Position numbers and translations under genes: made by a program. The notes beneath the pieces are model-generated. The model was not told where the DNA came from. It did no database searches and saw only the letters and a program-made list of their open reading frames with translations. This document shows, one piece after another, positions 2,923 through 44,760 of a DNA stretch of 53,900 bases. This DNA comes from Candidatus Bathyarchaeota archaeon (GTDB taxonomy: Archaea; Thermoproteota; Bathyarchaeia; Bathyarchaeales; Bathycorpusculaceae): positions 1 to 53,900 of the forward strand of contig JAGTQT010000005.1 of the NCBI GenBank assembly GCA_018396615.1, read 5' to 3'. Positions within the stretch are counted from its first letter, which is position 1. Each line of letters opens with the position of its first letter.

Positions 2923-2945
2923 CATGTTGCTTTTGAATGGGGTTC

Positions 2946-4514: not shown

Positions 4515-4537
4515 GAATTTTAAACTTTCGCAGTAGG
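4515..4537 (-). promoter_or_regulatory. promoter box copy 2, about 35 nt upstream of the acyl-CoA dehydrogenase start
   Basis: The plus-strand text gaattttaaactttcgcagtagg shares the core AATTTTAAAC-TT-GCA-TAG with 2897-2922. Confidence 0.45.
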
Positions 4538-4681
4538 CAACGTTAATCCAAGATTCACTTCGCTATGCAGCCTTATGGCATGAACTTTGTTGTCTCGGTT
4601 TTGCAGAATGTGCTAATTCTTATATTAAAGACCGAGAAATAGAGACTGTACCATAAACTACTTTATGGGAAGGCAGAGCCT

Positions 4682-6791: not shown

Positions 6792-6807
6792 GTCTCTTTT
6801 CTTCCTC

Positions 6808-7734
6808 CTAGTAGGGTAAAGGTTTTTTGGCTTTAAGCTCCATCAGTCTTTCCATGCCTATTTTCTTAAGGAAATCAGTGTGACTGTCTGTGCTGGTTAT
6901 GTATTCTTCGCAGTATTTTTGCCATCCTTCTTCAGTCTTGCACTGCTCGTAATACCGCCGTATGTGCTCCATGTCATAATCATAGTAATTGTAAACCATC
7001 ATTGGATATGATCCCCACGGGCATTCAACCACGTGGCTGACGTAAATGTTCGGGATGACTGTTTGATCTGGCTGAGCTCGGATAAATTCAGTATCAACGA
7101 TCTCCTCGGCGAGAATGATTACTTTTTTTCCTGCTCTCGCGCCTTCTATGTCTTCGCCTTTTATTCCGTCAATCTGCGCGTTTCCCTCTTTATCCACGCG
7201 TGAGGCATGCACTATACTAAAGTCTGGACGAACAGACGGAACAAGCACAATTTTCTCTCCAGTAAAAGGACATTCAATCAGCTCAGCCTTCTTGGGTCTA
7301 AACCTCTTTTTTGACAAAAGATCGGTTCCCAGCATGCTTTTGAGAGGCATAAACGGGACGCCTAACGCTCCGCCGAGAAAACGCAGCGCCATCGCCAAAT
7401 TCGTGTAATCTTCAATCTCAATTGCGCCTTCACGAATTCTTCTCTGAATGTTAGGCGCCAAGCCTATTCCCTCTATGGCATAAAACGCCATCTCATAGCG
7501 CGACACCACATAGGCGCCTGACAGTATATCAATGTCCATTTCAGAGCCACAGGTGTATATTGTTAGGTTCCGCTTTTTCTGCCTGACAAGCTCATGTGCA
7601 AAAGCCATTGGCGGACGCTGAAAGCCGAAGCCTCCCCAGAACAGGTGTGCGCCATCTGGAACTAGCTTAACAGCCTCTTTCAGAGTAATTCTCTTGTCTT
7701 CTATGGCAGACTCGACCATGTCATGCACCAGCAA
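6808..7734 (-). CDS. acyl-CoA:acid CoA-transferase, subunit A
   Basis: Motifs are KRITLKEAVKLVPDGAHLFWGGFG and NLTIYTCGSEMDIDIL. It forms a typical A/B gene pair with 6000..6791. Confidence 0.8.
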   Translation of the reverse strand: MLVHDMVESAIEDKRITLKEAVKLVPDGAHLFWGGFGFQRPPMAFAHELVRQKKRNLTIYTCGSEMDIDILSGAYVVSRYEMAFYAIEGIGLAPNIQRRIREGAIEIEDYTNLAMALRFLGGALGVPFMPLKSMLGTDLLSKKRFRPKKAELIECPFTGEKIVLVPSVRPDFSIVHASRVDKEGNAQIDGIKGEDIEGARAGKKVIILAEEIVDTEFIRAQPDQTVIPNIYVSHVVECPWGSYPMMVYNYYDYDMEHIRRYYEQCKTEEGWQKYCEEYITSTDSHTDFLKKIGMERLMELKAKKPLPY

Positions 7735-8851: not shown

Positions 8852-10789
8852 TTAGTTGCGTTTGTTTCCTCCATTGTTTGAGCCAAAGTATGCTGTTATC
8901 TTGGCGTTCTTTGAGACGTCGGCTTCTTTCTCTGCTTCCAGCTTGATATCCATAGGCTCGAAAGTCTGATTAAGTGCTGTAAGCAGGTTGCGAACATAGT
9001 CGGCTACATTTATCTCTGCAAGGTTTGGCGCAAGCTCTACAGGCTTTACAGTAAAGGTTTTGCCCTTGTACGGAAAGGGCTTAACTTTAACAAAGGAAAC
9101 AGTGTCTCCTCTCTTTAGACGTTTGCCTGCGTCAATAAGCTGTAGAGCGCACTGGTAAGGCTGATGTGCAGTCTTCATGTCAACGACTTTTTCATTAGGA
9201 TCAAAATACAGCCTAACAGAATAAGTCAGCTCCTCAAGCTTGACTTTGCGGCTTCTAAGGTCTTGAATGGCTTTGGCAACCACTTGTTTAATCCTCTGCT
9301 TGGCTTGCTCGTATTCCTCTCTGTTTCTTACTGAAGATAGTTCTTTAACACATTGCTGAAAAACTTTGGTCACATACACCGAGGTGTTAGACTTTGCTGC
9401 AGTAACACCTTTAATGTCTGGGCTTCCATCAGGCATTATGCCGAAGTACGCTTTTTTCGCCTTAGGCAACACGCAGAGACTGTAGCGTTTGTCAACAGCC
9501 AAGTCGAGACGAAACCTTTCTTTTGCCGCATTAATCAGCCACCTAACTTGCTCGTCATTTGCATTGTCAAGGAAAAGCGAGTCAGTATCCCCATACAAGG
9601 GGCGCAGTCCTTTTTCTTCAGCTATTTTCCAGCTTTCCCGCAAAACATACCGTCCGTACCCAGTTATCGCCTCAGCTAAAGGCGGACACGCAACACCATG
9701 AATCCGCACAGTAACGCCGTAGCTTGAGACAAGAAACAGTTTCAAAAGCTTCGCCGCTGTACTCGCGGTTTCCCGCTCCTCTTCCTTTAGAGAGTTATCC
9801 TTTGATGCTGGCTTGAATATTTTGATGCGAAGCTCCTTCAACGCACCAATAAGTACAGAGTAGAAGCCTCTGCGCAGAGTACAGACGTGACTATCAACAT
9901 CAGGTATCCTGTTACCCCTACATTCTAGGTGAGGGCAGTCAACAGTCTCATAAGACAGGTTGAAACTATCAATGCAGCTGGGATACAGACTTTCAAAATC
10001 GCACACCACAGTGTTGAAGTATATTCCTGCTTTAGGTGCAACCGTAAGGGCGCCGACGACTCTGTGAGGCTGCCTTCCTCTAAGCAGTTCATCAGCAGTT
10101 GGAATGAGAATGCTGTTTCTTCTTAGATAAGTGTGAATCATGGAGCGTATCCAGTCACTCACCCGCCTACTTACAAGCGCCTCAGTCACCGGAATGTTTG
10201 CCACCCTCGCCAACATCCACGCAGCGTAGACTCTGCTGGAATCGACATCACGATCTTTGAGAAGTTGAAAATCAAGCTTGGGAACAGGCTGATTTAGCAG
10301 ATTAAACCAGTAAGCTATCTGCGCGTACTTAAGCGGGTCTTTGGACTGCATCTCGCCGAAAGCGCTATCAAATCTAGCCTTCGCGGCTTCACTGACTTGC
10401 AGAATAGGTTTTAGATCATTTTCTGAATGCATTGCGCCAAAAGCCAGACCCTTGTCATATACATAGGATTTCACAACGTCTATCTCGCTTTCCCAGCACC
10501 GGTCAAGTTTACTGGCGGCTTTCAAACCGATAGCTGAGTTCGGCCAGTTAACCTGCCCTAAAACTCTTTTTTCGTTTGTAAAGAGGTCAATTTTCTGGGC
10601 TATCTGGGCGTTACCGCTGAATTGTAGAATTATTTCTTTGTCTTTTTCAGAAAGAGGATAGGCAACAAAGAAGTAAGGCTTGTAGTCCTTATCGATAATC
10701 TCGGTTACGTGGCTGCTGCTGTCAACAAACCTTAGTTTTATTGCGTTGGTTTCGGTGAGCATTGCGTCAAGCAGGAATAATTCTGTCAA
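8852..10789 (-). CDS. polB: family B DNA polymerase, short form (645 aa) with a degenerate 3'-5' exonuclease region
   Basis: Polymerase motif A (DFESLYPS), motif B-like (KLFLVSSYGV) and motif C (YGDTDSLF) are intact. Where the ExoI FDIE motif is expected, after ESEIDVVKSYVYDKG, the sequence reads LAFGAMHS. The exonuclease segment is also short. Confidence 0.85.
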   Translation of the reverse strand: MTELFLLDAMLTETNAIKLRFVDSSSHVTEIIDKDYKPYFFVAYPLSEKDKEIILQFSGNAQIAQKIDLFTNEKRVLGQVNWPNSAIGLKAASKLDRCWESEIDVVKSYVYDKGLAFGAMHSENDLKPILQVSEAAKARFDSAFGEMQSKDPLKYAQIAYWFNLLNQPVPKLDFQLLKDRDVDSSRVYAAWMLARVANIPVTEALVSRRVSDWIRSMIHTYLRRNSILIPTADELLRGRQPHRVVGALTVAPKAGIYFNTVVCDFESLYPSCIDSFNLSYETVDCPHLECRGNRIPDVDSHVCTLRRGFYSVLIGALKELRIKIFKPASKDNSLKEEERETASTAAKLLKLFLVSSYGVTVRIHGVACPPLAEAITGYGRYVLRESWKIAEEKGLRPLYGDTDSLFLDNANDEQVRWLINAAKERFRLDLAVDKRYSLCVLPKAKKAYFGIMPDGSPDIKGVTAAKSNTSVYVTKVFQQCVKELSSVRNREEYEQAKQRIKQVVAKAIQDLRSRKVKLEELTYSVRLYFDPNEKVVDMKTAHQPYQCALQLIDAGKRLKRGDTVSFVKVKPFPYKGKTFTVKPVELAPNLAEINVADYVRNLLTALNQTFEPMDIKLEAEKEADVSKNAKITAYFGSNNGGNKRN

Positions 10790-10792: not shown

Positions 10793-11830
10793 CTATTCCC
10801 CGCTGACTCCCAGTTCTCGCTTGATGTCTGCAATCTCCGTTTCCGATAATGGGCGTGGGTAATTGTAGATCGGGCCGCTAGGCTTTTCATTGTAGTAGGG
10901 ACGATTGCAATTTGGGCACCCAGACGTGAGGAAAGGCTCACCAGTGTGAATAATGCGCTCAAGCCTTTCTTTTCCAACTCCAAGATCTGCTAGGTTGCCT
11001 GTTTTCTCGAACCGCATGTTTTCAAATCTTGCAAGCTTGTGTAAAATCAAGTATCTAGCCAACTGAATCCTTCTGTATCGTTGAAGCGGTGGTTGATCAG
11101 CTTTCTCTAATGCAGTGCCGCGGATAGGAGTGAACGCAAAAAGCGCAGGCTGGACACCCATATCTACGCATTGCTGAATGGCTTTTATCATCTCTTTCTC
11201 GGTCTCGCCAAGCCCAACGATTAGATGCGTGCTTACCTTGTTTTCTCCAAGGAGCGTCACTGCTTTGTGAAGGAGCTCAAGTTGCTGCCTCCATCTGTAA
11301 GGACCTCCAGCAGATCTTCCCTTGACTTTGTTGAATATTTCCTTGGTTGCAGCGTCTAAGGGGATTCCTACTCTTTCTGCACCAGCATTGATTAAGTGCG
11401 TAATATTTTCTATGTTCAGTGGCTGGCAAGAGACTGAGATTGGCACCGCAACTTGTTTGTGGATTGCTCCAACGAGACTTTCAACGTCTCTTAGTGCTTC
11501 TTGATAATGCAGTGTTTGGATGCAGATACGTCGTATCTTTTCGTCAGCAGCGGCTTTTTGAAGCCTACTTGTTACTTGGTCAAGCTGGAAAGAAGGCCAC
11601 GATATTCTTGAAAGCATGTCTTCTCTGCCGGAGCTTTTTCTGGCTTGGGGGCAGAAACCGCAATTTGCGTTGCATCTGCCTTGCTTATGCGTCATCAAAT
11701 AAGCGGTTGTCGGTGCAGCATCAAGCTTGCCTTTAACCAAACCTATCGCTATCGCCGTCCCAAGTGAGACACGGACAAGCCCCGGCGCAGCGTTGCCAGA
11801 AGGATTTCTTGGATTCACCTTTATCAGCAT
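10793..11830 (-). CDS. radical SAM enzyme (BioB/LipA-like superfamily)
   Basis: Motifs are CNANCGFCPQ (CX3CX2C), LIVGLGETEKE and FAFTPIRGT. The stop lies 3 nt before the PolB start. Confidence 0.8.
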   Translation of the reverse strand: MLIKVNPRNPSGNAAPGLVRVSLGTAIAIGLVKGKLDAAPTTAYLMTHKQGRCNANCGFCPQARKSSGREDMLSRISWPSFQLDQVTSRLQKAAADEKIRRICIQTLHYQEALRDVESLVGAIHKQVAVPISVSCQPLNIENITHLINAGAERVGIPLDAATKEIFNKVKGRSAGGPYRWRQQLELLHKAVTLLGENKVSTHLIVGLGETEKEMIKAIQQCVDMGVQPALFAFTPIRGTALEKADQPPLQRYRRIQLARYLILHKLARFENMRFEKTGNLADLGVGKERLERIIHTGEPFLTSGCPNCNRPYYNEKPSGPIYNYPRPLSETEIADIKRELGVSGE

Positions 11831-11942: not shown

Positions 11943-12395
11943 TTGATGACAACCAGTGAGATGAATTTAGAAGAGATTAAACAGTTTCTCACGTGTAGCA
12001 GAGTTGGCAGAATCTCAGTGTCTCTTGAAACCAGCCCATACATCGTTCCAGTGGGCTACGTATACACTGAAGGTGTCATAGCTTTTCACACATGCATGAA
12101 GGGATTAAAAGTAGAGGCAATCAGAAAGAACCCCAATGTCTGCTTCGAGGTAGATGAATCTGCATCTGACGCGTCATGGTTCAAAAGCGTCATAATCTTC
12201 GGAAAAGCAACCATAATCGAGGAAAGAAGCAAAATGGTTCCCTACCTGCAAAAACTCATCGACAAATATCGTGTACCCACAGATTTTGACGAATACATGA
12301 GCAAACCGGGCAGAGACAAGGAGAAGGAGCTTCAGGCAGTTAGGATATGCATCATAACACCTGAAAAGATTACAGGACGAAAACGGTGTGCATAA
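11943..12395 (+). CDS. pyridoxamine 5'-phosphate oxidase-like FMN-binding split-barrel protein
   Basis: The pattern ...GRISVSLETSPYIVPVGYVY...IAFHTCMKGLKVEAIRKNPNVCFEVDE... is typical of the PNPOx-like family. ATG at 11946 is the likely start. Confidence 0.65.
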   Translation: MMTTSEMNLEEIKQFLTCSRVGRISVSLETSPYIVPVGYVYTEGVIAFHTCMKGLKVEAIRKNPNVCFEVDESASDASWFKSVIIFGKATIIEERSKMVPYLQKLIDKYRVPTDFDEYMSKPGRDKEKELQAVRICIITPEKITGRKRCA

Positions 12396-13431
12396 TCTGT
12401 TGAACGCAAAGATCTTCAGTCAAGACATTAATGCGGTTTTCAGCACAAATAACCTAGAAGAACTAGAACAATGGCTCGACGCCGCTTGGAAGGTCAAGCA
12501 GGAGAATTTTGGCAACAAAATACGCTTCTACGCACCAAGCTTCACACATTATAAGACCAAGAAGTTCTGCAGCTCCTCCATCGATTTTCCAACAATTTCA
12601 GTAACAGGCAAAGGCTGCGCACTGAAATGCAAGCACTGCGGCGGCTTGATCCTTGAAACGATGTATCCGGCAACCACTTCCAAAGAACTCTTTGACCTAT
12701 GCGCTAAGCTGAAGAAAAAAGGTGCGTTAGGCTGCCTTATCAGCGGAGGCTGTCAGCCAGATGGTTCTGTTCCACTCGGCAAGTTCGCAGAAGCCATCGC
12801 CAGGATTAAGCGTGAACTGGGACTGGTGGTCTTTGTCCATACAGGCATAATCAACCAAAGGACGGTTGCCGCACTAAAAAATGCTGGAGTCGATGCTGCG
12901 CTTATAGACGTCATAGGCTCCGACGCCACAGTTGAAGAAGTCTACAACATGGAGATAACGGTAGACAGCTATGCTGAATCCCTGCGGATACTGCATGAAG
13001 CGGGTATGGTGTTCGTGCCCCATGTCATTGTCGGGCTTCACCACGGGATGCTTAAAGGAGAATTGAATGCATTGGAAATGATATCGAGATACTCTCCTTC
13101 TGCGCTTGTCATAATTGCCTTCATGCCAATACGCGGAACAGAAATGCAGCACATTAAGCCACCGAGCCCGCTGGACATAGCGAAGGTTATGGTTGCCGCG
13201 AGATTGATGTTTCCTAAAACCCCTCTAGTTCTTGGGTGTATGCGACCAAAAGGAGCGCACAGGAAAGAAACAGACATGCTAGCCATAAAAGCAGGAGTGA
13301 ACGCCATAGCCTTTCCCGCTGAAGAAGCAATAGAGCTTGCAGAGGAAAAGACATGCGAATGCTCTTTCTCCTTGTCCTGTTGCGCGCAGATCTATTTTGA
13401 TGCGGGTTCCCTAGCGGTGTCCTCTGTATGA
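12388..13431 (+). CDS. radical SAM enzyme, paralogous to 10793..11830
   Basis: Motifs are CALKCKHCGG (CX3CX2C), ISGGCQPDG and IAFMPIRGT (compare FAFTPIRGT in the other gene). The GTG start overlaps the stop of the PNPOx-like gene by 8 nt. Confidence 0.75.
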   Translation: MHNLLNAKIFSQDINAVFSTNNLEELEQWLDAAWKVKQENFGNKIRFYAPSFTHYKTKKFCSSSIDFPTISVTGKGCALKCKHCGGLILETMYPATTSKELFDLCAKLKKKGALGCLISGGCQPDGSVPLGKFAEAIARIKRELGLVVFVHTGIINQRTVAALKNAGVDAALIDVIGSDATVEEVYNMEITVDSYAESLRILHEAGMVFVPHVIVGLHHGMLKGELNALEMISRYSPSALVIIAFMPIRGTEMQHIKPPSPLDIAKVMVAARLMFPKTPLVLGCMRPKGAHRKETDMLAIKAGVNAIAFPAEEAIELAEEKTCECSFSLSCCAQIYFDAGSLAVSSV

Positions 13432-19640: not shown

Positions 19641-20480
19641 TTGTGTCCAAAGCAGCTAGAAGGGAAAGCCTCAACGCCAGTTCGCTTTAACAGAGCCTTG
19701 GCAATACCAGTCACCTACTTGATGCTGTTCGTGGCTTTGATAACCATAATATCGGCAACTTACAGCTTTGCCATAATCAAGATAAATGCTAAGGCAAACA
19801 CGTTGAAAGCCTCTCTTGCGAAGCAAAGCATGCAGCAGCTTGACGACGCATTACACGACGTCGCATGGAGCACGGGGGCTTCCAAAACAGTTTATTTCGA
19901 CGAGTATAGTGGTAGTTTTCAGACTTTCCCATCCGCAGAGAACCTGCAGATTACAATAGCTTTCACATCAGAGCCTTCCGAATTGGCGCTTAACGGATCA
20001 ATTGGAAAGGTGGCTTACAGGTTGCAAGCCTCCGAGTACAGCGATGTTGGGCTTTTCATTAAGGGAAATAGCAAGGCAATAGTAAACCAGAGCCTTTCTA
20101 TGGCAACACAGCTTTACGTCGAGGAAAACGGGGGCAATCAACAAGTAACGCTTTGCTACCGACCCTATGCTTTATCAGCACCTATTGGGTCAGAAAACGG
20201 TAAACCCTTGAATCTTGTGCGCATTTACCTCATAAACCTAAGCTTATCGCAAAGTCTCTTACTTGAAGGAGAATTCAACCTAAAAACAACATCAACAAAC
20301 GTTGAGATCACGACAAAACAGTATGAACTTAACCAAACAGTCACCTCGGTCGCGTTGACAGGCAAAATGGGCTCTTGCTCAGACACTGTTTGGCTACCGA
20401 TCTCAAGCAACTTGGATGGAGCATTTGTAGAGCTAGAGATTCTTGTTTGCAACATTTGTATAGAAAAAGCGGAGGCTTAG
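19641..20480 (+). CDS. pilin-like / pilus-associated protein with a class III signal-like N-terminus
   Basis: The N-terminus ...VRFNRA/LAIPVTYLMLFVALITIISATYSF resembles a class III signal peptide. The start is TTG and is uncertain. Confidence 0.55.
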   Translation: MCPKQLEGKASTPVRFNRALAIPVTYLMLFVALITIISATYSFAIIKINAKANTLKASLAKQSMQQLDDALHDVAWSTGASKTVYFDEYSGSFQTFPSAENLQITIAFTSEPSELALNGSIGKVAYRLQASEYSDVGLFIKGNSKAIVNQSLSMATQLYVEENGGNQQVTLCYRPYALSAPIGSENGKPLNLVRIYLINLSLSQSLLLEGEFNLKTTSTNVEITTKQYELNQTVTSVALTGKMGSCSDTVWLPISSNLDGAFVELEILVCNICIEKAEA

Positions 20481-20482
20481 CT

Positions 20483-20938
20483 GTGCCGTCAATATTGCCA
20501 GGGCATCTCTACACTTTCGCTGCACTTCTTGCCGTAAGTAGCCTCCTTGTCTTCTCATTCATGGTTTACGCGGGAACAGCCCGCACTTCGTCAGAAATAA
20601 GGCTACTAAACAAACTTCTAGATCATGTGGCGGCTGACGCAAGCGAACTTCTTAACATAGCTCTTACGGTGAACGCTACCATCGAACGTCAACTTCAGAT
20701 GCCTTCGGCAATAGGTAACCAGCAGTATTGGCTTAGACTTCGCAATGACTCTTCCAGTGCATGGCTGGAAGGCGGGCTTGGAGCCACGCCGATAGAAGGC
20801 TCAGAACTCAAAGCCTACCTTCCAAACGGAGCCTTTGTGTCTGGCAGCTATCTTTCGGGGCATGGATCAGCCAAACTGACATGCTTCCTAGATGACGGCA
20901 TCCTGAGAGTTCAACTTTCAAGCGCGAATGGAGATTGA
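20483..20938 (+). CDS. pilin-like protein
   Basis: I re-assigned the start to the in-frame GTG at 20483, which lies 7 nt after GGAGG. The N-terminus is VPSILPG/HLYTFAALLAVSSLLVFSFMVYA. The track ORF start at 20375 would overlap the previous gene. Confidence 0.5.
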   Translation: MPSILPGHLYTFAALLAVSSLLVFSFMVYAGTARTSSEIRLLNKLLDHVAADASELLNIALTVNATIERQLQMPSAIGNQQYWLRLRNDSSSAWLEGGLGATPIEGSELKAYLPNGAFVSGSYLSGHGSAKLTCFLDDGILRVQLSSANGD

Positions 20939-22539
20939 TGGAGTTGAAGATGAGCAATAAGTCTAAAGCAAAGGCGGAAACAAGCCTTGAAGAAGTAATC
21001 AAGAACGAGGAAGAAGCAGTTGATTCTCTCAATGTTAGAAGGTCGAGTATCCCTGAGGGATATGATGAGATCGAGTACTATCCGCTTATACCTCCTTTTG
21101 CGTACGCGGCAATTCTTCAAAACAGAGAAACACTGGAACACCTTTACGTGCTAGATGAACTGCCGCTCAGCAGAGAGGAGAGAATTGGCTACACCAGCTT
21201 AAGAAACATCTTAGAATACGAGCTACAAGCACCTGAAGGCGAAGAAACACTTGCTGAATCCTTCAGGAGACAATTACCCGCCATCATTAAAGATCACGAA
21301 AAAATCTTTATAGGAATCTCTCAGATTGGCATGCGCAAAATCCTCTACAACCTTGAAAGAGATATCGTTGGCTACGGAAAGATTGATCCGCTTCTGCATG
21401 ACGATAACGTGGAGGACATAAGCTGCGGCGGAGTAAACAAGCCCATCTTCCTTTGGCACAGAAAATACGAAAACATCAGAACCAATGTAGCTTTTCGCGA
21501 TGAGCAAGAACTAGACGACTTCGTAATGCGTGTTGTCCACAAGGCTGGAAAGCACGTAAGCATAGCCTTCCCAATAGTTGACGTAACTCTTCCTGAAAAG
21601 CATAGGCTGGCAGTCTCTTTCGGAAAAGAAACAACTCCTCTAGGCACATCGTTTACTGTGAGAAAGTTTCGAAGAGATCCCTTCACCATTGTTGACTTGA
21701 TTGAGAACGAGACAATAGACGAGTCGATAGCCGCGTACCTGTGGATGCTGATGGAGAATAAGATGTCTGTGATGATCATAGGGGCAACAGGCGCAGGTAA
21801 AACCACAGCGCTGAACGCTGTAGCTTGCCTTGTAAGACCCAACTACAAAATAATCTCAGTAGAAGAGGTAGCGGAAATCAACCTTCCGCATGAAAACTGG
21901 ACATCAACCATTGCCCGCTCAGGCTTCGGCGTCGAAGGAGAAGGCGAAATCTCCCTGTACGATCTGATCAAGTCAGCAGTACGACACCGCCCAGACTTAA
22001 TACTTGTAGGAGAAATTCGCGGTGAAGAGGCATACGTCCTCTTTCAAGCGCTGGCAACAGGTCACGGCGGTTTATGCACTTTACACGCTGAGGATGTTGA
22101 CACTGCCGTGAAGAGGCTCACGCAGCCGCCCATGAACATTCCAACATCAATAATTCCCCTGATGAACTGCGTCATCAACGTAAAACATGTAAGAACGCCT
22201 GTCTTCCTAGAGTCCGGAAAGAGGCTTTCAAGCAGAAAATTCATCAACGTCTCAGAAATAAAAGACGCCAGCAGCTTCCAACAAGTCTTCAGCTGGAACC
22301 CCTCAACCGACACTTTCCAAGAGAACATTGCAGACAGCTATCTGCTTAAGAGAATGGCTACAAGCTTGGACATTCCCATAGAGAAAATCATTGACGAACT
22401 CGAATATCGCAAGCGCGTTTTGCTTCATATGGTCGAGCATAGGATAAGGGACTACAAAAGCGTGAACAACGTGCTAAGCAAGTATTACAACAACCCGCAG
22501 CTGTTTCAAAGAGAGTTCCTTGAAAAATCTAAATGGTGA
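20935..22539 (+). CDS. type IV pilus / secretion NTPase (FlaI/PilB/VirB11 superfamily)
   Basis: Walker A is IIGATGAGKTT and Walker B region is PDLILVGEIRGEEA, with GHGGLCTLHA also present. The start overlaps the previous stop (ATGA). Confidence 0.9.
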   Translation: MMELKMSNKSKAKAETSLEEVIKNEEEAVDSLNVRRSSIPEGYDEIEYYPLIPPFAYAAILQNRETLEHLYVLDELPLSREERIGYTSLRNILEYELQAPEGEETLAESFRRQLPAIIKDHEKIFIGISQIGMRKILYNLERDIVGYGKIDPLLHDDNVEDISCGGVNKPIFLWHRKYENIRTNVAFRDEQELDDFVMRVVHKAGKHVSIAFPIVDVTLPEKHRLAVSFGKETTPLGTSFTVRKFRRDPFTIVDLIENETIDESIAAYLWMLMENKMSVMIIGATGAGKTTALNAVACLVRPNYKIISVEEVAEINLPHENWTSTIARSGFGVEGEGEISLYDLIKSAVRHRPDLILVGEIRGEEAYVLFQALATGHGGLCTLHAEDVDTAVKRLTQPPMNIPTSIIPLMNCVINVKHVRTPVFLESGKRLSSRKFINVSEIKDASSFQQVFSWNPSTDTFQENIADSYLLKRMATSLDIPIEKIIDELEYRKRVLLHMVEHRIRDYKSVNNVLSKYYNNPQLFQREFLEKSKW

Positions 22540-24052
22540 GACCTTGGAGACGCACATCAAGCCAAAATTCTTCAAGCAACTTCTAGGCTATCTGACAGGC
22601 GCAAGCTCAAGCGAAATCGACCGCGAACTGCCATTTGCAGCGCTGCTGTTTACACTGCTTGCGGCAAGCGGCGTGACAATCTACGAAAGCTGGAAGAAAC
22701 TATGCAGAATAAGTCTCCTTCCTAATTTTCAAAAGGAGGCTCGCGAAATCGTCCGGCAAGTCGAAGTCTTAGGCTACGATCCGCTTACCGTGATGTACAA
22801 GCGTTCTGAAAAGGTGAAATCGAAAAGCTACCGTGAATTCCTATTAGGCTACGTTTCCTCAGTAAGAAGCGGAGGAAACACTGTAAACTATCTTAAAAGC
22901 AAACTGCGCTCGATCTTTGACGTGCAAAGCGCCGCCGCCGTCCGCTCAATTGAAAGACTAGGAACCCTAGTAGAGGCTTACGCCGTAATGCTCATAGTCA
23001 CCCTTTGCTCCTACATACTTTTCATCGTCTTTTCCACAACCTCCATCTTTGAACCCATGAAAGCTTCAGGCACGCCCGGCATGTCTCCAGTTGTTACTAG
23101 CGTTCTCGTTTTCTTTGTAACGCCCATGATCTCCATCGTGTTTATGGCGGTAGCGAATGCAGAGCGAAAAAGCAACTTGATAAGTGTTAAGAAGCCCTAT
23201 CAGCTGGCATTGCCTTCAGCAGTAGCCGTTGGGCTATTTCTGGTACTACTTGCGTTTCCAACTCCCCTTCAGTTCTTGGCAGGTCCAGAGCTTTTTCCCC
23301 TCGTGGTCACGGTTTGCCTAGCAATAATCTCTTTTCCACCAATGCTTGCCTACGCAAAGATCGCTAAAATCAACTCAGATGCGGAGACAGCTATGCCCAG
23401 TTTTCTCAGAGACGTGACCGAAGCCAGAAAAACCGGTTTGTCTCCTGAAAAAAGCATAATCCACGCTGCAAAACGCACTGGCTACGGGCGGTTTACTGGT
23501 CTGCTTCACCTTATCCGAAGCCAAATGGAATGGGGGGTCTCCCTTAGAAAGATCTTCGAAAACTTGGGACAAAAAATCCGTTCATGGCCCGTTCTTGTGC
23601 ATTTTCTGATACTTTCGGAGACCATCAAAATCGGAGGCGGCGCAACCACCGCACTAGACATACTTACAGAGTACAGTGAAAAGCAGAGAGATGTTGACGC
23701 CAACAAGAAGTCACTTCTTCGCCCCTACGTCATTCTAGCCTTTGTCTGGAGCATTCTTATCGCGCTTACAACGACCATGGTTGCCATGACCGTCTTTGCC
23801 TTAACTCAGATATCCATGCCCGGCACCGTTCCTATGCCTATCAGGCTTATGCAGGATCAAATTAACATGTTCTCAGTAGGCATAATCTTCCAGTGTTGGC
23901 TTTCAGGATTCTTTGTCGGCAAGGTAAACGAGGGAACCTTCGCTGCAGGTTTCAAGTACTCCGTCATGCTCGTAATCACGGCGTATCTCTCACTTGTGCT
24001 ATCACGCGGACTAATAGGAGACCTATACGGTGTCACAGTGTTTCCGCAATAG
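22520..24052 (+). CDS. polytopic membrane platform protein (FlaJ/TadC/PilC-like)
   Basis: The 510-aa product has two repeated cytoplasmic-plus-TM modules. It lies immediately after the ATPase gene and overlaps it, which is the canonical arrangement. Confidence 0.75.
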   Translation: MKNLNGETLETHIKPKFFKQLLGYLTGASSSEIDRELPFAALLFTLLAASGVTIYESWKKLCRISLLPNFQKEAREIVRQVEVLGYDPLTVMYKRSEKVKSKSYREFLLGYVSSVRSGGNTVNYLKSKLRSIFDVQSAAAVRSIERLGTLVEAYAVMLIVTLCSYILFIVFSTTSIFEPMKASGTPGMSPVVTSVLVFFVTPMISIVFMAVANAERKSNLISVKKPYQLALPSAVAVGLFLVLLAFPTPLQFLAGPELFPLVVTVCLAIISFPPMLAYAKIAKINSDAETAMPSFLRDVTEARKTGLSPEKSIIHAAKRTGYGRFTGLLHLIRSQMEWGVSLRKIFENLGQKIRSWPVLVHFLILSETIKIGGGATTALDILTEYSEKQRDVDANKKSLLRPYVILAFVWSILIALTTTMVAMTVFALTQISMPGTVPMPIRLMQDQINMFSVGIIFQCWLSGFFVGKVNEGTFAAGFKYSVMLVITAYLSLVLSRGLIGDLYGVTVFPQ

Positions 24053-24078
24053 AGGCAAAAACAGGAAGTGCAAAAAAC

Positions 24079-25143
24079 ATGCCAGCCACATCGATTGACA
24101 CGTTTTTCGCCTGTTCCTTAATGGTGTTGCTTACAGTAGTTGCCATGGCAAGCACCTCAAAGGTGATCTACTCGTATATGGGTAGCCGCCAAGAGTTAAG
24201 CGAAGTTGAAAGACTCTACGCGCTATCCAAACGTCTCTTGCTAGACTGCGGAAACCCAGCAAACTGGGGTAAACATGGCGAAGAGGTTCCGGAAAAGTTT
24301 GGTCTAGCAGAAAGCAGTGTAGAAGCCGCGTACGCATTGGATATCGACAAAGTCTCTCGGCTAAACGATAGAAACCATTTTGAAATCACGTATGCGCAGG
24401 CATATTCAGCTCTAGGAATACCCGACCTTTCTTTCAAAATGGAGATACAACCAGTTTTTGGTGTCACTGTAAACCTAACAGCGAAATATGAAGAAGCAAA
24501 TGAAACAACATACACCTTCAAAATCTTAACCGAACGTGGAGGCGCATCTGTTTCCGCGGAACTAAAATGCTACGCAGTTTCAGAGAATCGCCTACAACAG
24601 AGCGATGTCCATGCTTCAAGCGGTCAAGTCTATGTCAACATAAGCATCCCGAACAGCGACGCTGGACCAGCCCTGCTCGTGGCTTTCGCAAGATCCCCCC
24701 ATGATTCCTGCATAGCGTCTTTCAGCGCATACCCTTTTCAACACGGGTCCGCAGAGCCAAAGACCAATGGAACCTATGCGAAGCTAAGCCCGCTAAACCA
24801 TAGCCTCACAGTATCCGTAAACCATCCTTTAACAAATGTTTCCAGAGCATACGCATTAACCTTTAACCATGTATCAACGCTCGCGCAGACAACAGCATCT
24901 AACCAGTCAGCAACCTACCCGATCCCCAGCTTAACAGAGCCAAGCCCCATATTGCTAGTCGCAGCAGGCTACAACTCTACAGACTTTTTTACCGAGTGGA
25001 CAGCCTACCCGCAGATTCCTATTCAGTTTGGCGTCAGCCCTGCAGGGCGCTCAAACACGTTTACTTGCCACTACATTGTGCGGATTAACGCAGTTATCTA
25101 CAGATGCACGATATGGATCGGAGGCTTAGCCGATGAAACGTGA
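24079..25143 (+). CDS. pilus-locus extracellular protein with an N-terminal TM anchor (354 aa)
   Basis: I use ATG 24079 (MPATSIDTFFACSLMVLLTVVAMA...). The track ORF start at 23893 overlaps the platform gene. The product has many N-x-S/T sequons. Confidence 0.5.
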   Translation: MPATSIDTFFACSLMVLLTVVAMASTSKVIYSYMGSRQELSEVERLYALSKRLLLDCGNPANWGKHGEEVPEKFGLAESSVEAAYALDIDKVSRLNDRNHFEITYAQAYSALGIPDLSFKMEIQPVFGVTVNLTAKYEEANETTYTFKILTERGGASVSAELKCYAVSENRLQQSDVHASSGQVYVNISIPNSDAGPALLVAFARSPHDSCIASFSAYPFQHGSAEPKTNGTYAKLSPLNHSLTVSVNHPLTNVSRAYALTFNHVSTLAQTTASNQSATYPIPSLTEPSPILLVAAGYNSTDFFTEWTAYPQIPIQFGVSPAGRSNTFTCHYIVRINAVIYRCTIWIGGLADET

Positions 25144-25558
25144 AAACGCAGGGCAGATCCGCATAATCGAAGCCCTCTTGGCTATGTCGGTTATTTTCTC
25201 GTCCTTAGCCATCTCAACAAATCTGGCAACCGTGCAGAACGACGCAGGTCAATGGGATCTCGGCTCCATGGGGTTCAAAGTTCTTATGTTGCTGGACTCG
25301 GATGGAGCGCTGTACACGCATATAGAAAGCGGAAACTGGACGGCTCTCCGTAAACTTCTGGCTATGACTTTGCCTGCTGAAATATTGTTTAACATGACGA
25401 TCTACGATGAGAGCATGCAGCAAGTCAACACGGAGCTTATCTGCAATGGCGATCTATCTGACAGCGAAACAGTCTGCATAGAGTATGTTGCTGCAAGCCC
25501 AAATCGAGTCTTCCGCGTTTACCTAATCCAGTTAATGCTGGCGGCGATCCATGAATAG
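25133..25558 (+). CDS. minor pilin-like protein
   Basis: The N-terminus is MKRENAG/QIRIIEALLAMSVIFSSLAI, a G/Q-type class III signal. The gene overlaps both neighbours. Confidence 0.5.
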   Translation: MKRENAGQIRIIEALLAMSVIFSSLAISTNLATVQNDAGQWDLGSMGFKVLMLLDSDGALYTHIESGNWTALRKLLAMTLPAEILFNMTIYDESMQQVNTELICNGDLSDSETVCIEYVAASPNRVFRVYLIQLMLAAIHE

Positions 25559-26312
25559 AAGAAACAGAATGCTCGCTTCCAACCACTCGGGGCAGATGCT
25601 CATCGTTGCCGCACTAGCTATAGCCATTCTAATCTCCACAACCGTGATGTACACCTACGAGCTAGCTAGAGAACACTACAGCCAAACAGACAGAGAAATC
25701 AGCGACTTCATTCAACAAGTAAAACAGGCAACACAAAACATGGTAACAAGTTCGCTTGCAAACGCTTCAAACAGCGCAGAAAGCACAGTTTTTCTCTCGA
25801 ACTCCGCAAAGCTTGCACAACTTATCAGAAGCCTACACCTTTACGAAGTGTCTAACTTGAGCCTCACACTGCGTAATGATTCCACTTATAATGAAGGCGT
25901 AAAACTCTCATGGACCGCGGAAGGGGTTGGAACCTCAAGCGCCTGCGTGGATGCAGTTTTGCATGTGAAAGGCTTCTCAACAGATGTGACTGCAACGTAC
26001 AGCGTTAACGTGACCACAACGATGATGATTGAAGGACACTACGTGGTTGAAGGCAGCGAGAAAAATGTTACCCTTAAATGCAGAACATATAATGAGAACA
26101 AGTCTTCATCTGTGGAAAATGTAACTCTTTACTATAATGACAGCGGCAACTGGGCTAAGGTGACTGATTATTCTACGGTCTCTTATGGAAACGGAACTTA
26201 TGTCTTTTCCTTTTTTGTCACTGTTGCGGCTGAAAACGTAGAGGTCTCAGCACATGTACTCGATTCTCGTGGCATTTACGTGCAAGCAAACATGACATGC
26301 TATGCCCAATAA
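25551..26312 (+). CDS. minor pilin-like protein
   Basis: The N-terminus is ...NHSG/QMLIVAALAIAILISTTVMY. The product has many glycosylation sequons. A T5 tract follows at 26325-26329. Confidence 0.5.
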   Translation: MNRRNRMLASNHSGQMLIVAALAIAILISTTVMYTYELAREHYSQTDREISDFIQQVKQATQNMVTSSLANASNSAESTVFLSNSAKLAQLIRSLHLYEVSNLSLTLRNDSTYNEGVKLSWTAEGVGTSSACVDAVLHVKGFSTDVTATYSVNVTTTMMIEGHYVVEGSEKNVTLKCRTYNENKSSSVENVTLYYNDSGNWAKVTDYSTVSYGNGTYVFSFFVTVAAENVEVSAHVLDSRGIYVQANMTCYAQ

Positions 26313-41009: not shown

Positions 41010-42299
41010 CTAGGGCTCGTTTCTATGAAGCTTTTGAGCTGCAATAAAAGCCAAGCCATTCTCAGTAAGAAGACGCGCTGTCTTATTCAAGGCGTCGTGT
41101 TTGTCAAGATAGTTCGCTAGCAACAGCGGCATAAGTCCCTTCTCCATAATGTCTTTTTTCGGCATAAAGTATTCCAGAATATCTGAGGGATGTGCTCGGG
41201 TCTGCTCGACTTCTGGGAGCCCTCCTTCGTGTTTGGCGCTGATGTTCTTTACGTGGTCCGCAAGCTTAACTAGTTCGTTTTGCCGGTTGTAGGGCTGCCT
41301 GACTATGCTCTTATAGGCTTCAGTAATGTGATGCTCGATGCGTACAAGGTCTTCGAAGCCAAAGGTTTTCCTTGCGTAGGCTGAAAGCTCAATTGTTCTG
41401 TTGTCCACGGAGTTTGACAGGTTGAAACCGATCAGCGGCGTGGTTCCGTCTTCGCGGCTGAAGAGTTTGGCTGTCATCAGTGTCCAAAGCACCGAATAGG
41501 GGTTGTCATTGCCAAGATAAACTGAAATCTTAAATTCGATGTCGATGCCGAGTTTATGCATCAAGTAGCCAAGAAGCACGGTGCCCGAGTTTACGTTCAA
41601 AACCTGTTTTACACCATATTCTGTATGGTAATGCAAGTATTCTTTAACCCATTCCAACGAGTAATGGTTTGGCTCTCCAACTCCCCCGAAATAGCCTGTT
41701 ATTGTTTCCGCTCCGCCTAGATGGACATTTACGGGTTTTCCATCAGGCCCAGGCAGCGTTCCTTTGGTATCAAGTGTCTGCACGTAGGAAGCTCCTGTGA
41801 TCTGCGCGGCTGCGGCGAAGGCGAGAATGTCGTCGTCTTCAACCTGCTCTTTCATGGAGCGAACACGAATGTATCTCCCGGGCATAAGTTCCTGTTTGGC
41901 TATGGCGCGTTTGGCTTCTTCGATGAGCCAAGGGAAAAAGTTCATTGCGCTGATTTCAAGTGTAACGGCGAAATCTGGTTTAGGCTTGATGGTTTCAGCT
42001 TTTTTTCCCAAGATTTTTCGTCGATACTCAGGTATGCTGATGAAAGCATTCTGGTCACGTTGCTTAGTTAGCCACTCAAGATCTTTGGCAAAGGGCGATT
42101 TTTTTCGCTCCAGCCTGTTCATGAGGTTTTCAAGTCTGCCTGCTTCTCTGGCTTTTCGGTTAATTTCAGCTACTCCGCCGTAGCTGTCGATAATTTCAAG
42201 CAAGCTGCCAACTAGCGGGTTGTCGCTGCTTAGAAGGAACTTATTGATTTCTTTCAGATTTTTTTCGTTGATTTCTAGTTTTCTCTGAAGGTTTTCCAT
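41010..42299 (-). CDS. hypothetical protein, 429 aa, enzyme-like, family not recognised
   Basis: A long clean ORF with non-repetitive, globular composition. It is divergent from the aldolase::Fae gene. I could identify no motif. Confidence 0.5.
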   Translation of the reverse strand: MENLQRKLEINEKNLKEINKFLLSSDNPLVGSLLEIIDSYGGVAEINRKAREAGRLENLMNRLERKKSPFAKDLEWLTKQRDQNAFISIPEYRRKILGKKAETIKPKPDFAVTLEISAMNFFPWLIEEAKRAIAKQELMPGRYIRVRSMKEQVEDDDILAFAAAAQITGASYVQTLDTKGTLPGPDGKPVNVHLGGAETITGYFGGVGEPNHYSLEWVKEYLHYHTEYGVKQVLNVNSGTVLLGYLMHKLGIDIEFKISVYLGNDNPYSVLWTLMTAKLFSREDGTTPLIGFNLSNSVDNRTIELSAYARKTFGFEDLVRIEHHITEAYKSIVRQPYNRQNELVKLADHVKNISAKHEGGLPEVEQTRAHPSDILEYFMPKKDIMEKGLMPLLLANYLDKHDALNKTARLLTENGLAFIAAQKLHRNEP

Positions 42300-42490
42300 G
42301 GCATAAGCCTCGGGTTTGATAGTCTCTGTTCATTTCTAGCTGATTTAAGCATTTTTCCCTGCCCAGCAGTTTTTTTAGGAAGCAGCCGAGAGCTTGATGC
42401 GCATTGCTATGTGGCTGGTTTAGACGCAAAGGTTATAAAAGAAGCATTGTTGTAGGAAGTCTCCGAAAAGGAAGAGGGTGATGGCTGATT

Positions 42491-43969
42491 ATGTATAAAC
42501 CTGAGGGAATTTTGCCTGCGCTGGTTACACCTTTTACGGACGACGGTTCAGCAGTAGATGAGGAGAGGCTTCGTATTCTGGTAAATCGATGTATAGAGCT
42601 TGGCGTGCATGGAGTCGTTCCCTGCGGTACGACTGGCGAGTTCTCAAACATGTCAATGGAAGAGAAAAAACGCGTGATCAGCGTTGTAGTTGATGAAGTA
42701 AATGGCAGAGTACCCGTCGTAGCTGGCACAGGCGCCAGTGGAACAAGAGAAGCGTTAGAGATGACGAAATATGCTAAGGATGCTGGCGCAATGGCTGCAT
42801 TGATTGTAACGCCGTTCTATCTGAAGCCGGCTGACCGCGGGATATATGAGCATTACGACACAATCGCAAGCAAGGTTGAGCTGCCTATAATTCTTTACAA
42901 CATTCCCCAGTGCACGGGTCTACCGATGCCGTGGCAGATGGTTGAAGACCTAGCTCAGATCCCCAACGTTGTAGGCGTTAAAGACAGCAGCGGACAGCTA
43001 AGTTTCATACTCGCTGTTTTGGAGAAAGTTAGAGACAAGATCAATGTCATGTGCGGGCATGACGAAATCGTTATCGGCGGACTTGCAGCTGGCTGCTCAG
43101 GCGCAATTCTCGCAAGCGCCAACGTTATCCCAGACATCTGGGTCAAAATGTACAACTGCGTTAAGAATGGCAACCTACAGGAAGCCCGTGAACTCCAATA
43201 CAAGATTCAGAAGATAGCACGGATAATAGCTGGAAGCGGAGCTGTAGGGACTAAGGCGGCGCTGAACATGATGAAGATCAAAGTTGGCCCGGTTAGGATG
43301 CCGCTGAGCGTGGGCGGCGAATTAAGCTACGAGTCTAGAGAGGAACTAAGGTTGGACTTGGAGAAAATAGGCAAAATCGAGCCTAAGCCCGTTACCTTCG
43401 AAGTAGTCGAGCAACCTATAGAGCAAAGGTTTATGACGATAGATGTAACTCCCGAAGTCATAAAAGGGTTTAATCTGAAGGTTGGCGAAGCGCTGGCAGG
43501 CGGAGGCGCCGAAGTCGCCCACATAGACCTCCTGATCGGCAGAAAGGACGGGCCGGTTGGGGAAGCTTTCGTTAAGGCTAAGGCTGTGCCTTCTGCTGGA
43601 CATGAGCCTCTGCTAGCCCTCTTGGAACCTAACCTCAGCGTGAAACCTGAAACCCTCATCATTCCCACGGTCACGGTTACAAGCATGAGACAGGCCAGCA
43701 TGATCTTTGGTCCGGCTCAAACCGCCGTTGCCAAGGCGGTGGTTGACAGCGTTGCTGACGGAACACTGCCATCCCATGCAGTCGAAGACCTAGTGATGAT
43801 CGCTAACGTGTTTGTTCATCCTTCCGCTGTCGACCGTCAGAGAGTTTACATCAACAACTATAAGGCAATGCGGCACGCCATCCGCAAAGCCATCGAGGGA
43901 AGGCCTAGCGTTGACGAGCTGATCGAAAACAAGGAGCGATCTAAGCATCCATTCAAATATACGCCGTAG
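42491..43969 (+). CDS. fusion protein: DapA/NAL-family class I (Schiff-base) aldolase (residues 1 to about 295) plus formaldehyde-activating enzyme Fae domain (residues 328-492, nt 43472-43966)
   Basis: The N-terminal domain has GVVPCGTTGEF, ILYNIPQCTG and VVGVKDSSGQ (Schiff-base Lys context). The C-terminal domain (KVGEALAGGGAEVAHIDLLIGRKDGPVGEAF...LEPNLSVKPETLIIPTVT...MIFGPAQTAVAKAVVDSVADGTLP...NVFVHPSA...NNYKAMRHAIRKAIEG...KHPF) aligns by eye along the whole length of Fae. A TATA-like ggttataaaag lies about 50 nt upstream. Confidence 0.75.
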   Translation: MYKPEGILPALVTPFTDDGSAVDEERLRILVNRCIELGVHGVVPCGTTGEFSNMSMEEKKRVISVVVDEVNGRVPVVAGTGASGTREALEMTKYAKDAGAMAALIVTPFYLKPADRGIYEHYDTIASKVELPIILYNIPQCTGLPMPWQMVEDLAQIPNVVGVKDSSGQLSFILAVLEKVRDKINVMCGHDEIVIGGLAAGCSGAILASANVIPDIWVKMYNCVKNGNLQEARELQYKIQKIARIIAGSGAVGTKAALNMMKIKVGPVRMPLSVGGELSYESREELRLDLEKIGKIEPKPVTFEVVEQPIEQRFMTIDVTPEVIKGFNLKVGEALAGGGAEVAHIDLLIGRKDGPVGEAFVKAKAVPSAGHEPLLALLEPNLSVKPETLIIPTVTVTSMRQASMIFGPAQTAVAKAVVDSVADGTLPSHAVEDLVMIANVFVHPSAVDRQRVYINNYKAMRHAIRKAIEGRPSVDELIENKERSKHPFKYTP

Positions 43970-44760
43970 TGAAACAGACCTTGCCTGAAACAGAGATCCA
44001 TGAAGGGGACTATGTTCTCCTATACATGAGCCCGCGTAAGACTTACCTAGCAAGGGCTGAAAAAGGCAAGAGTTTTCACACACACAAAGGCTACGTTGAA
44101 TTCGACAGCCTGATTGGGAAAGAGTGCGGCTCCGCGGTTAAGAGCAGTTTGGGCTTCGAGTTCATCGCTTTGAAGCCTCAGCTTAGAGATTTCATAATGA
44201 AGTCTGCGCGGCAAACGCAGATTACCTACCCAAAAGACGTGGCGCTCATCGTGATGTTCAGTGGTATAGGTCCAGGCAGCCGCGTGGTTGAGGCTGGAAC
44301 AGGAACGGGCGCGTTAACCGCAGCTTTAGCTTATTACGTGAAGCCCGAAGGCAAGGTCTATAGTTACGAGATAAGAGAGGAGTTCATAGCAACTGCGGAG
44401 AAGAATTTGAAGCGTGCTGGCTTGAAGGATTTTGTGGAACTGAAAAACAAGGACATCGTTGCGGGAATCGACGAAAGAGATGTCGACGCAGTGGTGCTGG
44501 ATCTGGCGCCTCCTTGGCTTGTTGTTCCTCATGCTTATAGTGCTCTGAAGCCTTCAGGCGCCATTGTCTCTTTTAGCCCGACAATAGACCAAGTAGTGAA
44601 GACAGTGGAGGCGCTTAGAGAAAACGGTTTTGTTGACGTGGAAAGCGTAGAGTGCTTGATGCGTGGAATGCAGGTTGAGCGAGGAAAGACTAGACCGCAG
44701 ACCCTTATGACTGCACACACCGGATACATAACATTCGGACGAAAAATAACGAAACTCTGA
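43969..44760 (+). CDS. trmI: tRNA (adenine-N1)-methyltransferase (TrmI / Gcd14 family)
   Basis: An N-terminal beta domain (GDYVLLYMSPRKTYL...) is followed by the SAM motif RVVEAGTGTGALT and DAVVLDLAPPW. The GTG start overlaps the preceding stop by 1 nt. Confidence 0.8.
   Translation: MKQTLPETEIHEGDYVLLYMSPRKTYLARAEKGKSFHTHKGYVEFDSLIGKECGSAVKSSLGFEFIALKPQLRDFIMKSARQTQITYPKDVALIVMFSGIGPGSRVVEAGTGTGALTAALAYYVKPEGKVYSYEIREEFIATAEKNLKRAGLKDFVELKNKDIVAGIDERDVDAVVLDLAPPWLVVPHAYSALKPSGAIVSFSPTIDQVVKTVEALRENGFVDVESVECLMRGMQVERGKTRPQTLMTAHTGYITFGRKITKL

Follow-up and report, generated by a model that had tools for sequence, protein, structure and literature searches.

A single gene of a Bathyarchaeia genome joins a predicted class I aldolase of the dihydrodipicolinate synthase (DHDPS) family to a complete formaldehyde-activating enzyme (Fae) domain. 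It lies in a stretch of 53,900 nucleotides (nt) from Candidatus Bathyarchaeota archaeon (contig JAGTQT010000005.1, assembly GCA_018396615.1, positions 1 to 53,900); this whole stretch is termed the window. The apparent integrity of both active sites supports the view that the gene encodes a true two-domain, bifunctional enzyme. The best reading of its function, to which we give somewhat less than an even chance, is by analogy that of a pyruvate/formaldehyde aldolase coupled to tetrahydromethanopterin (H4MPT). The fusion recurs in Bathyarchaeia and in Asgard archaea, mostly in the company of a second conserved gene, here called fam1.

The fusion gene

The open reading frame (ORF) codes for 492 amino acids (aa) and is uninterrupted between an ATG start and a TAG stop. 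Its features are as follows.

42491..43969, + strand: aldolase-Fae fusion ORF, a DHDPS-like class I aldolase followed by Fae
42500..43363, + strand: DHDPS/NAL-family aldolase domain, aa 4-291 (Pfam PF00701), with GTTGE at 46-50, Tyr110, Tyr136 and Lys164
42911..42913, + strand: Cys141 codon, aligned with DapA Arg138 by way of solved DHDPS structures (YNVPgRTG)
42980..42982, + strand: codon of Lys164, the predicted Schiff-base Lys, aligned with Escherichia coli DapA Lys161 by way of solved DHDPS structures
43364..43480, + strand: inter-domain segment, aa 292-330, two β-strands in the AlphaFold2 model
43481..43954, + strand: complete Fae domain, aa 331-488 (Pfam PF08714, TIGR03126, alignment with 1Y5Y)
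43520..43522, + strand: codon of His344 (AHIDL), equivalent of Fae His22 by 1Y5Y alignment
43718..43720, + strand: codon of Gln410 (FGPAQ), equivalent of Fae Gln88 by 1Y5Y alignment

A Pfam search with the fusion protein assigned aa 4-291 to DHDPS (PF00701, model positions 2-287 of 289, E 4.9e-80) and aa 331-488 to Fae (PF08714, model positions 1-158 of 159, E 1.9e-62, 210 bits against a cutoff of 27). The NCBIfam models TIGR00674 (dapA) and TIGR03126 (one_C_fae) are matched with 248.7 bits and 221.5 bits, respectively, i.e., above their cutoffs of 206.15 and 118. The characteristic motifs are GTTGE (aa 46-50), YNIPQCTG (136-143), GVKDSSG (162-168), AHIDL (343-347) and KHPF (485-488). These results agree with a first-pass annotation made from the nucleotide sequence, which had described one uninterrupted ORF with a complete aldolase and a complete Fae, had placed the motifs exactly where we find them, and had suggested to probe each half with profile models; the C-terminal half scores well as Fae.

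The AlphaFold2 model of the monomer has a pLDDT of 88.4 and a pTM of 0.84. In the segment between the domains the model contains two β-strands (aa 298-303 and 310-315, pLDDT about 84-89), and according to the alignment the length of this segment is constant among orthologues. It is predicted to be structured and not a floppy linker. When the model was compared with the PDB by Foldseek only the aldolase half was matched, with a TM-score of 0.95 to the DHDPS of Methanocaldococcus jannaschii (2yxg); a structure which combines both domains was not found in this search.

The aldolase half

The best PDB sequence matches of the aldolase half are DHDPS enzymes with 38-40% identity. Lys164, Tyr136, Thr47/48, Tyr110 and the GTTGE stretch align with the Schiff-base Lys, the Tyr-Thr-Tyr' relay and the GxxGE motif of DHDPS. 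In E. coli DapA the chemistry is carried out by Lys161, Tyr133, Thr44 and Tyr107, and Arg138 at the mouth of the active site binds the carboxylate of aspartate semialdehyde (PMC4977564).

Motif conservation was surveyed in 81 fusion sequences, i.e., those from 80 genome loci and the window protein. All 81 have YNIP and the KDSSG Lys, and 80 have GTTGE (the remaining one GTTGES). This conservation of the catalytic residues across two phyla argues for selection on catalysis, and the aldolase half is probably active.

The position of Arg138 presents a different picture. Among the variants listed for the 81 sequences it is mostly Cys, else Val or Ala. In the 13 fused representatives of 50% identity clusters which keep the catalytic Lys it is occupied by Cys, Val, Leu or Ala, never by Arg. 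Because no Lys-intact copy possesses the DapA Arg, the aldehyde substrate most likely differs from aspartate semialdehyde, and the fusion protein probably is not the DapA of the lysine pathway. The first-pass annotation had drawn this conclusion from the missing Arg of the window protein; the enlarged set of sequences sustains it. Further, no dapB or other gene of the diaminopimelate (DAP) pathway was found within 10 kb of the fusion in the 80 loci. The nearest unfused relatives (~300 aa) carry the Arg in 57 of 125 cases, so that the fused clade has both true DapAs and DHDPS-like aldolases around it. At position 190, in the G-x-D-E motif, the fusion sequences have a bulky residue, His or Trp, a feature compatible with a pocket for a small aldehyde.

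The Fae half

For the C-terminal half, the alignment with Fae from Methylorubrum extorquens (1Y5Y, E 1.6e-36) covers residues 5-166 of a chain of 169. In the 2005 structure paper of Acharya et al., His22 reportedly is the proposed acid catalyst and Gln88 is said to rearrange upon H4MPT binding. Both have equivalents in the window protein, and its C-terminal arm (KHPF, 485-488) is present and aligns with 1Y5Y. The motif variants listed for orthologues from Bathyarchaeia and Asgard archaea keep AHIDL, FGPAQ and the HPF arm. By these residues the Fae half looks catalytically competent. The cofactor site of Fae is located between adjacent subunits. An H4MPT-dependent Wood-Ljungdahl pathway has been reported for the Bathyarchaeia in general (PMC10321748).

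Distribution of the fusion

Both Pfam domains occur together in more than 120 protein clusters (84-87% identity). Most of these proteins are ~492 aa long and stem from Bathyarchaeia assemblies that many projects have produced. When one genome per GTDB species was scanned, at least 80 loci with full-length fusion copies were detected in Bathyarchaeia and Asgard archaea. The search patterns were derived from an alignment of 7 sequences; an alignment of 14 was too divergent to yield patterns. For the analysis of loci we used 79, which by our own grouping comprise 52 from Bathyarchaeia and 27 from Asgard archaea. The Asgard copies, with 54-64% identity, are from Promethearchaeota, Thorarchaeota and Hodarchaeota, and a few are labeled 'uncultured archaeon'. 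Clustering at 50% leaves about 16 representatives of fusion length; the named members include Korarchaeota/Thermoproteota and one Anaerolineae bacterium. The Korarchaeota and Anaerolineae copies are divergent members of the family. No further DHDPS or Fae paralogues were found in about 1.3 Mb of flanking sequence. An exact match to the window protein was looked for in public assemblies and was not on record.

In public databases the fusion protein is named either '4-hydroxy-tetrahydrodipicolinate synthase' (DapA; NCBI, JGI) or 'formaldehyde-activating enzyme'. A literature search on fae combined with DapA, DHDPS, aldolase and domain-architecture topics found no description of an aldolase-Fae fusion; a large survey of Bathyarchaeia counted 'fae' as widespread (PMC10321748). 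For the lysine pathway of Bathyarchaeia the literature search yielded nothing of use. The first-pass annotation considered an unrecognised C1 entry or exit route in a non-methanogenic archaeon. The host is indeed such an archaeon, a member of the Bathyarchaeia. Novelty could be disputed if the architecture were both common and functionally assigned. Only the first half of this objection holds because the architecture is common, yet no functional assignment was found.

Two unusual relatives were encountered. P0131 is a 310-aa, aldolase-only protein, 56% identical, encoded on a 2.7-kb contig (L090:717-2530). A cysteine-desulfurase-like gene precedes it, and 12 nt downstream follows a short gene for a threonine-synthase-like (ThrC-like) pyridoxal phosphate enzyme. 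As its only close relative (L091, 76% identical) is a full fusion, P0131 may be a truncation and carries little weight. The second protein, P0140 (757 aa), starts with ~250 residues of fusion-type aldolase (YNIPQCAG, KDSSG) and continues with ~500 unrelated residues. Here we deal with another kind of fusion or else with an assembly chimera.

The conserved partner gene

The gene upstream of the fusion and the region shared by both have the following features.

41010..42299, - strand: conserved partner gene fam1, 429 aa, whose AlphaFold2 model starts with a helical bundle and continues as a TIM-barrel-like body
42300..42490: divergent intergenic region of 191 bp between the fam1 and fusion genes
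42433-42440: TATA-like TTATAAAA, read from the sequence, a putative promoter element
within 42300..42490: purine-rich GGGTGAT, read from the sequence, a few nt ahead of the fusion ATG

For the neighbor survey ORFs were called in all loci and then clustered. By far the most conserved neighbor is fam1. It occurs at the fusion locus in 63 of 79 genomes, nearly always adjacent, and about half of the loci where it is 'missing' have too little upstream sequence to judge. Of the 27 Asgard loci 26 possess fam1, which in 23 of them lies directly upstream of the fusion in the same orientation (median gap 22 nt). The 52 Bathyarchaeia loci include 37 with fam1; 32 of these are divergent, the median gap being 188 nt and that of the window 191 nt. 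The Bathyarchaeia and Asgard orthologues of fam1 are 59-67% identical to the window protein. For the fusion the identity between Bathyarchaeia and Asgard archaea is lower, about 55-57%; fam1 is the better conserved protein of the two. Invariant, polar-rich motifs are, e.g., TLDTKGT, GPDG, ITGYFGGVG, EFKISV..GNDNPY, EHH, RQPY and SAKHEG.

The first-pass annotation had characterized the divergent 429-aa gene as an enzyme-like orphan. As to family matches this is correct. We found no family match for fam1 in Pfam (E up to 1), in NCBIfam or in the PDB (single sequence and profile), and the 120 listed homologues are all devoid of a Pfam domain; they are called 'hypothetical protein', are unnamed or, in two instances, are called 'DNA-binding phage protein'. 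The term orphan is not appropriate for the most conserved neighbor of the fusion in two phyla. In the AlphaFold2 model of fam1 (pLDDT 75.7, pTM 0.81) an N-terminal bundle of helices precedes a series of units in which strand and helix alternate, and the invariant polar residues are located close to the strand ends. Foldseek returned only non-significant TIM barrels (enolase, MTHFR, class II aldolases, TrpA and xylose-isomerase-like proteins; E >=0.02, TM <=0.35). On the basis of this model fam1 is predicted to be an uncharacterised enzyme-like protein with a TIM-barrel-like fold. Any mechanism proposed for the fusion must include it.

In other Bathyarchaeia the slot upstream of the fusion is filled by a second family without Pfam domain, fam44 (~310 aa). 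Directly upstream of the fusion it is found at:

L038:8052-8987
L091:3406-4344
L171:7001-7933
L172:7001-7915

Three contigs have it on the same strand. At least 2327 homologues of fam44 exist, and neither Pfam nor NCBIfam provided a name or family. A profile-profile comparison of fam44 and fam1 (hhalign) gave an E of 4e-4 at a probability of 34%, with common FK[IV]S..G..NP and EIS motifs. This suggests, without proving it, that fam44 is remotely homologous to the fam1 barrel.

Tandem pairs of divergent copies

Divergent members of the aldolase-Fae family occur as tandem, often overlapping gene pairs. Such pairs are:

L084:2777-5735
L085:8628-11479
L087:8544-11449
L083:1048-3539
L171:8070-11001
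L079
also L088 and L089

The tandem pair of Korarchaeota corresponds to the consecutive accessions RLG49791 and RLG49790. The first copy of a pair, termed type B, has a Fae-like domain without the His22 equivalent, but the Gln88 motif is kept. In the second copy, termed type A-prime, His22 and the C-terminal arm are kept and the Gln88 motif is lost. As the losses are complementary and the Fae site is formed between subunits, a hetero-oligomer with shared active sites is suggested; the sequences hint at an inter-subunit H4MPT site in these proteins, too. Compared with these pairs the window clade is the single-gene form, in which by sequence both active sites are intact.

One of the pairs, that of L087-L089, is situated directly after an archaeal gene for 2,5-diamino-6-ribosylamino-pyrimidinone 5'-phosphate reductase (TIGR01508, 212 bits).

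Proposed function and alternatives

We propose that the N-terminal aldolase would interconvert a 4-hydroxy-2-oxo acid, in the simplest case 4-hydroxy-2-oxobutanoate (HOB), with pyruvate and formaldehyde. The fused Fae would condense the formaldehyde with H4MPT to methylene-H4MPT or, in reverse, release it. Direct transfer between the domains would ensure that free formaldehyde is never released. The fam1 partner might produce the aldolase substrate, e.g., as a metal-dependent dehydratase or isomerase, or might use methylene-H4MPT. Formaldehyde as the aldehyde, the direction of flux (assimilation or detoxification), the channeling between domains and the role of the partner are points which we infer. 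The formaldehyde part is based on an analogy, since in the NCBIfam library just one other Fae fusion is named, that with hexulose-phosphate synthase (Hps), an enzyme which releases or consumes formaldehyde. The first-pass annotation had drawn this analogy, and we regard its suggestion of a formaldehyde aldolase as plausible. A fae-hps has been reported in a Lokiarchaeota metagenome-assembled genome (PMC7495880). Further in favor of a coupled function, the fusion and the gene pair have been kept across Bathyarchaeia and Asgard archaea despite a rearranged orientation, divergent in the former and on the same strand in the latter. Taken one step further, Bathyarchaeia and Asgard archaea might possess a natural two-gene module: pyruvate and formaldehyde would be joined or split by a class I aldolase, Fae would exchange the formaldehyde directly with methylene-H4MPT, and fam1, then a new family of TIM-barrel enzymes to which fam44 may be related, would feed the pathway or drain it. 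This extended proposal is speculative, and we would not call it probable.

Several observations weigh against a pyruvate/formaldehyde aldolase coupled to H4MPT. Neither in the window nor within 10 kb in the 80 loci were genes of the H4MPT pathway found. Enzymes of the DHDPS family are known for C2 to C6 aldehydes. In the literature consulted, a reaction of pyruvate with formaldehyde is described only as a promiscuous class II activity, that of RhmA (PMC8879981). In the L087-L089 pair (L087 is the archaeon GCA_003560875.1) the catalytic Lys (ALADSSG, GILDATG) and the GTTGE motif are missing from both aldolase domains, and the Fae-type domains of the two proteins between them keep both sets of motifs. 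The functions of aldolase and Fae are therefore separable; by sequence the DHDPS fold of this pair is a pseudo-enzyme scaffold, which weakens the case for an obligatory coupling. Finally, the L084 pair, on an Anaerolineae-like contig, is surrounded by genes for a sugar ABC transporter, GH42, a Gfo/Idh/MocA oxidoreductase and a xylose-isomerase-like protein. This context fits an ordinary cleavage of keto-deoxy sugar acids equally well.

The L087-L089 and L084 pairs lend themselves to a reading in which the two activities are independent. The aldolase may act on a larger 4-hydroxy-2-oxo acid, e.g., a keto-deoxy sugar acid delivered by the partner, Fae may be a housekeeping detoxifier of formaldehyde, and the fusion may serve co-expression or oligomer scaffolding (Fae pentamer and DHDPS dimer) without any shared metabolite. 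We rank this possibility next to the main reading and somewhat below it in probability. It would also agree with the many unfused DHDPS-like relatives which have KDSSG and no Arg, and with the view of 'fae' as a general detoxification gene in Bathyarchaeia (PMC10321748). It does not readily explain why the fusion is stable in at least two archaeal phyla and in bacteria, why the segment between the domains is structured and conserved in a model with a pTM of 0.84, and why the partner in the one other named Fae fusion handles formaldehyde. In addition, no sugar-acid genes were seen beside the module in the Bathyarchaeia or Asgard loci.

Alternatively, the Fae-type domain could be an H4MPT- or pterin-binding module for other chemistry, be it the reaction of an aldehyde other than formaldehyde with H4MPT, cofactor biosynthesis or a partner-catalyzed hydroxymethyl transfer from methylene-H4MPT. 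The strong divergence of the Fae-type domains in the tandem pairs, with loss of either the His22 or the Gln88 motif, shows that the fold tolerates re-purposing. The weak Foldseek matches of fam1 include MTHFR and other folate- or C1-related TIM barrels, and the reductase next to one pair belongs to riboflavin/F420 biosynthesis. However, these matches (E ~0.03) are not significant, the riboflavin-gene adjacency is limited to a single lineage, and the window protein and its 80 orthologues retain the canonical Fae residues together with an equivalog-level Fae score. There is, in our opinion, only a small chance that this reading is correct.

Even smaller is the chance that the protein is the true DapA of the organism (4-hydroxy-tetrahydrodipicolinate synthase, EC 4.3.3.7) with an accessory Fae domain. 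Such an assignment could invoke the TIGR00674 score, the top PDB matches by sequence and structure, which are all DHDPS, and the names given by NCBI and JGI. It is at variance with the replacement of Arg138 by Cys, Val, Ala or Leu in every Lys-intact fused copy, with KDSSG in place of the K(E/D)A(S/T)G of aligned DapAs, with the lack of DAP genes within 10 kb in the 80 loci and with a conserved neighbor which is an uncharacterised protein and not a lysine-pathway gene. That two neighboring genes were joined by a sequencing or assembly error can be dismissed, because the identical single-ORF architecture is seen in more than 120 independent clusters and at least 80 genomes from different projects, including closed chromosomes; the fusion is real.

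Other genes of the window

Directly 3' of the fusion lies trmI (GCD14 family, 43969-44760, + strand). The first-pass annotation saw a translational link in a 1-nt overlap of the two genes. This overlap exists only if the GTG at 43969 is chosen as the start codon, and trmI of the closest complete genome begins 10 nt past the fusion stop. As trmI follows the fusion in 33 Bathyarchaeia loci and in none of the Asgard loci, the link did not stand up: it depends on the choice of start and is confined to Bathyarchaeia. A functional coupling of trmI was rejected in favor of lineage synteny. The other recurrent neighbors, UDP-glucose dehydrogenase, peroxiredoxin and nitroreductase, are likewise lineage synteny.

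Positions 1195-7734 contain a β-oxidation-type cluster with genes for an enoyl-CoA hydratase, a 3-hydroxyacyl-CoA dehydrogenase, an acyl-CoA dehydrogenase of 512 aa and two CoA-transferase subunits. Within it lies an HMGL-like synthase gene (4682-6007). It was considered as a marker of the aminoadipate pathway of lysine synthesis and discarded because NCBIfam does not tell whether it is an isopropylmalate, a citramalate or a homocitrate synthase. An ORF of 645 aa on the - strand (8852-10789) encodes a family-B DNA polymerase of which Pfam matches the polymerase domain alone (aa 205-611); an exonuclease domain had no Pfam match at E 1e-5. This ORF is flanked by radical-SAM genes, one directly adjacent (10793-11830) and one at 12388-13431. 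Among the co-directional genes of a run on the + strand (19641-26312) are those for a T2SSE-type ATPase and for a membrane protein of T2SSF type, as in a type IV pilus or archaellum-like system. Several nearby ORFs have no Pfam match.

Significance

Both Bathyarchaeia and Asgard archaea belong to the most abundant microbes of the subsurface and to the most abundant archaeal groups of sediments, and their carbon metabolism is inferred almost wholly from annotation. In reconstructions of lysine biosynthesis the fusion is counted as "DapA", which is probably wrong; in C1 reconstructions it is counted as "fae", which hides half of the protein. If the coupling of the aldolase to H4MPT is correct, an aldol reaction would connect the C1 pool of the H4MPT Wood-Ljungdahl pathway with the pyruvate-derived C3/C4 metabolism. 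This would be an unrecognised entry or exit route for C1 units and a natural counterpart of a step in the engineered 'homoserine cycle'. It would also offer a natural template for formaldehyde-assimilating aldolases in synthetic methylotrophy, which now relies on promiscuous enzymes. Irrespective of formaldehyde, fam1 represents an enzyme-like family which is uncharacterised and comprises thousands of members, and its tight linkage to the fusion provides an experimental handle.

Comparison with known systems

With stand-alone Fae from M. extorquens (1Y5Y/1Y60) the fusion shares the equivalents of His22 and Gln88 as well as the C-terminal arm. That enzyme is a free homopentamer of 18-kDa subunits, whereas here the Fae domain is tethered to a DHDPS-type domain which normally is dimeric or tetrameric. 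Because of this tether the quaternary structure of the fusion would have to differ from that of stand-alone Fae.

Likeness to DapA/DHDPS (TIGR00674) comprises the fold, GTTGE, the Tyr-Thr-Tyr relay and the Schiff-base Lys. The differences are Cys141 instead of Arg, KDSSG instead of KEA(S/T)G, the Fae domain and the absence of DAP genes among the neighbors. Archaeal KDG/KDPG aldolase, NanA, KdgD and HpaI-like enzymes are likewise pyruvate-dependent class I aldolases without the DapA Arg and are often paired with an enzyme which makes the keto-deoxy acid. Yet the scores of the fusion with these non-DapA families are far below the cutoffs (Arch_KDGaldase 125 against 390, NanA 160 against 382, HpaI-not-DapA 214 against 397), and we know of no such aldolase fused to Fae.

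The reaction proposed for the fusion is known from E. coli RhmA/YfaU, which has HOB aldolase activity, i.e., it interconverts pyruvate plus formaldehyde and HOB (PMC8879981). This activity was used in the synthetic homoserine cycle, and HOB was called a non-native metabolite (PMC8879981). RhmA is a metal-dependent class II enzyme of the HpcH family, promiscuous and without a link to H4MPT; the window aldolase is predicted to be of class I.

The closest parallel in design is Fae-Hps (NF009833). There, too, a complete Fae and a TIM-barrel carbon-carbon lyase are united in one polypeptide in archaea which use H4MPT, and the logic would be the same: the lyase makes or uses formaldehyde and Fae ties it to H4MPT. 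The Fae half of the window protein matches model positions 2-161 of 392 with 182 bits, below the cutoff of 274. In Fae-Hps, however, Fae is N-terminal and not C-terminal, and its partner is an Hps of the orotidine monophosphate (OMP) decarboxylase fold and not a predicted pyruvate-dependent Schiff-base aldolase of the DHDPS family. The fusion described here is a further instance of Fae joined to a carbon-carbon lyase, accompanied by an uncharacterised partner family.

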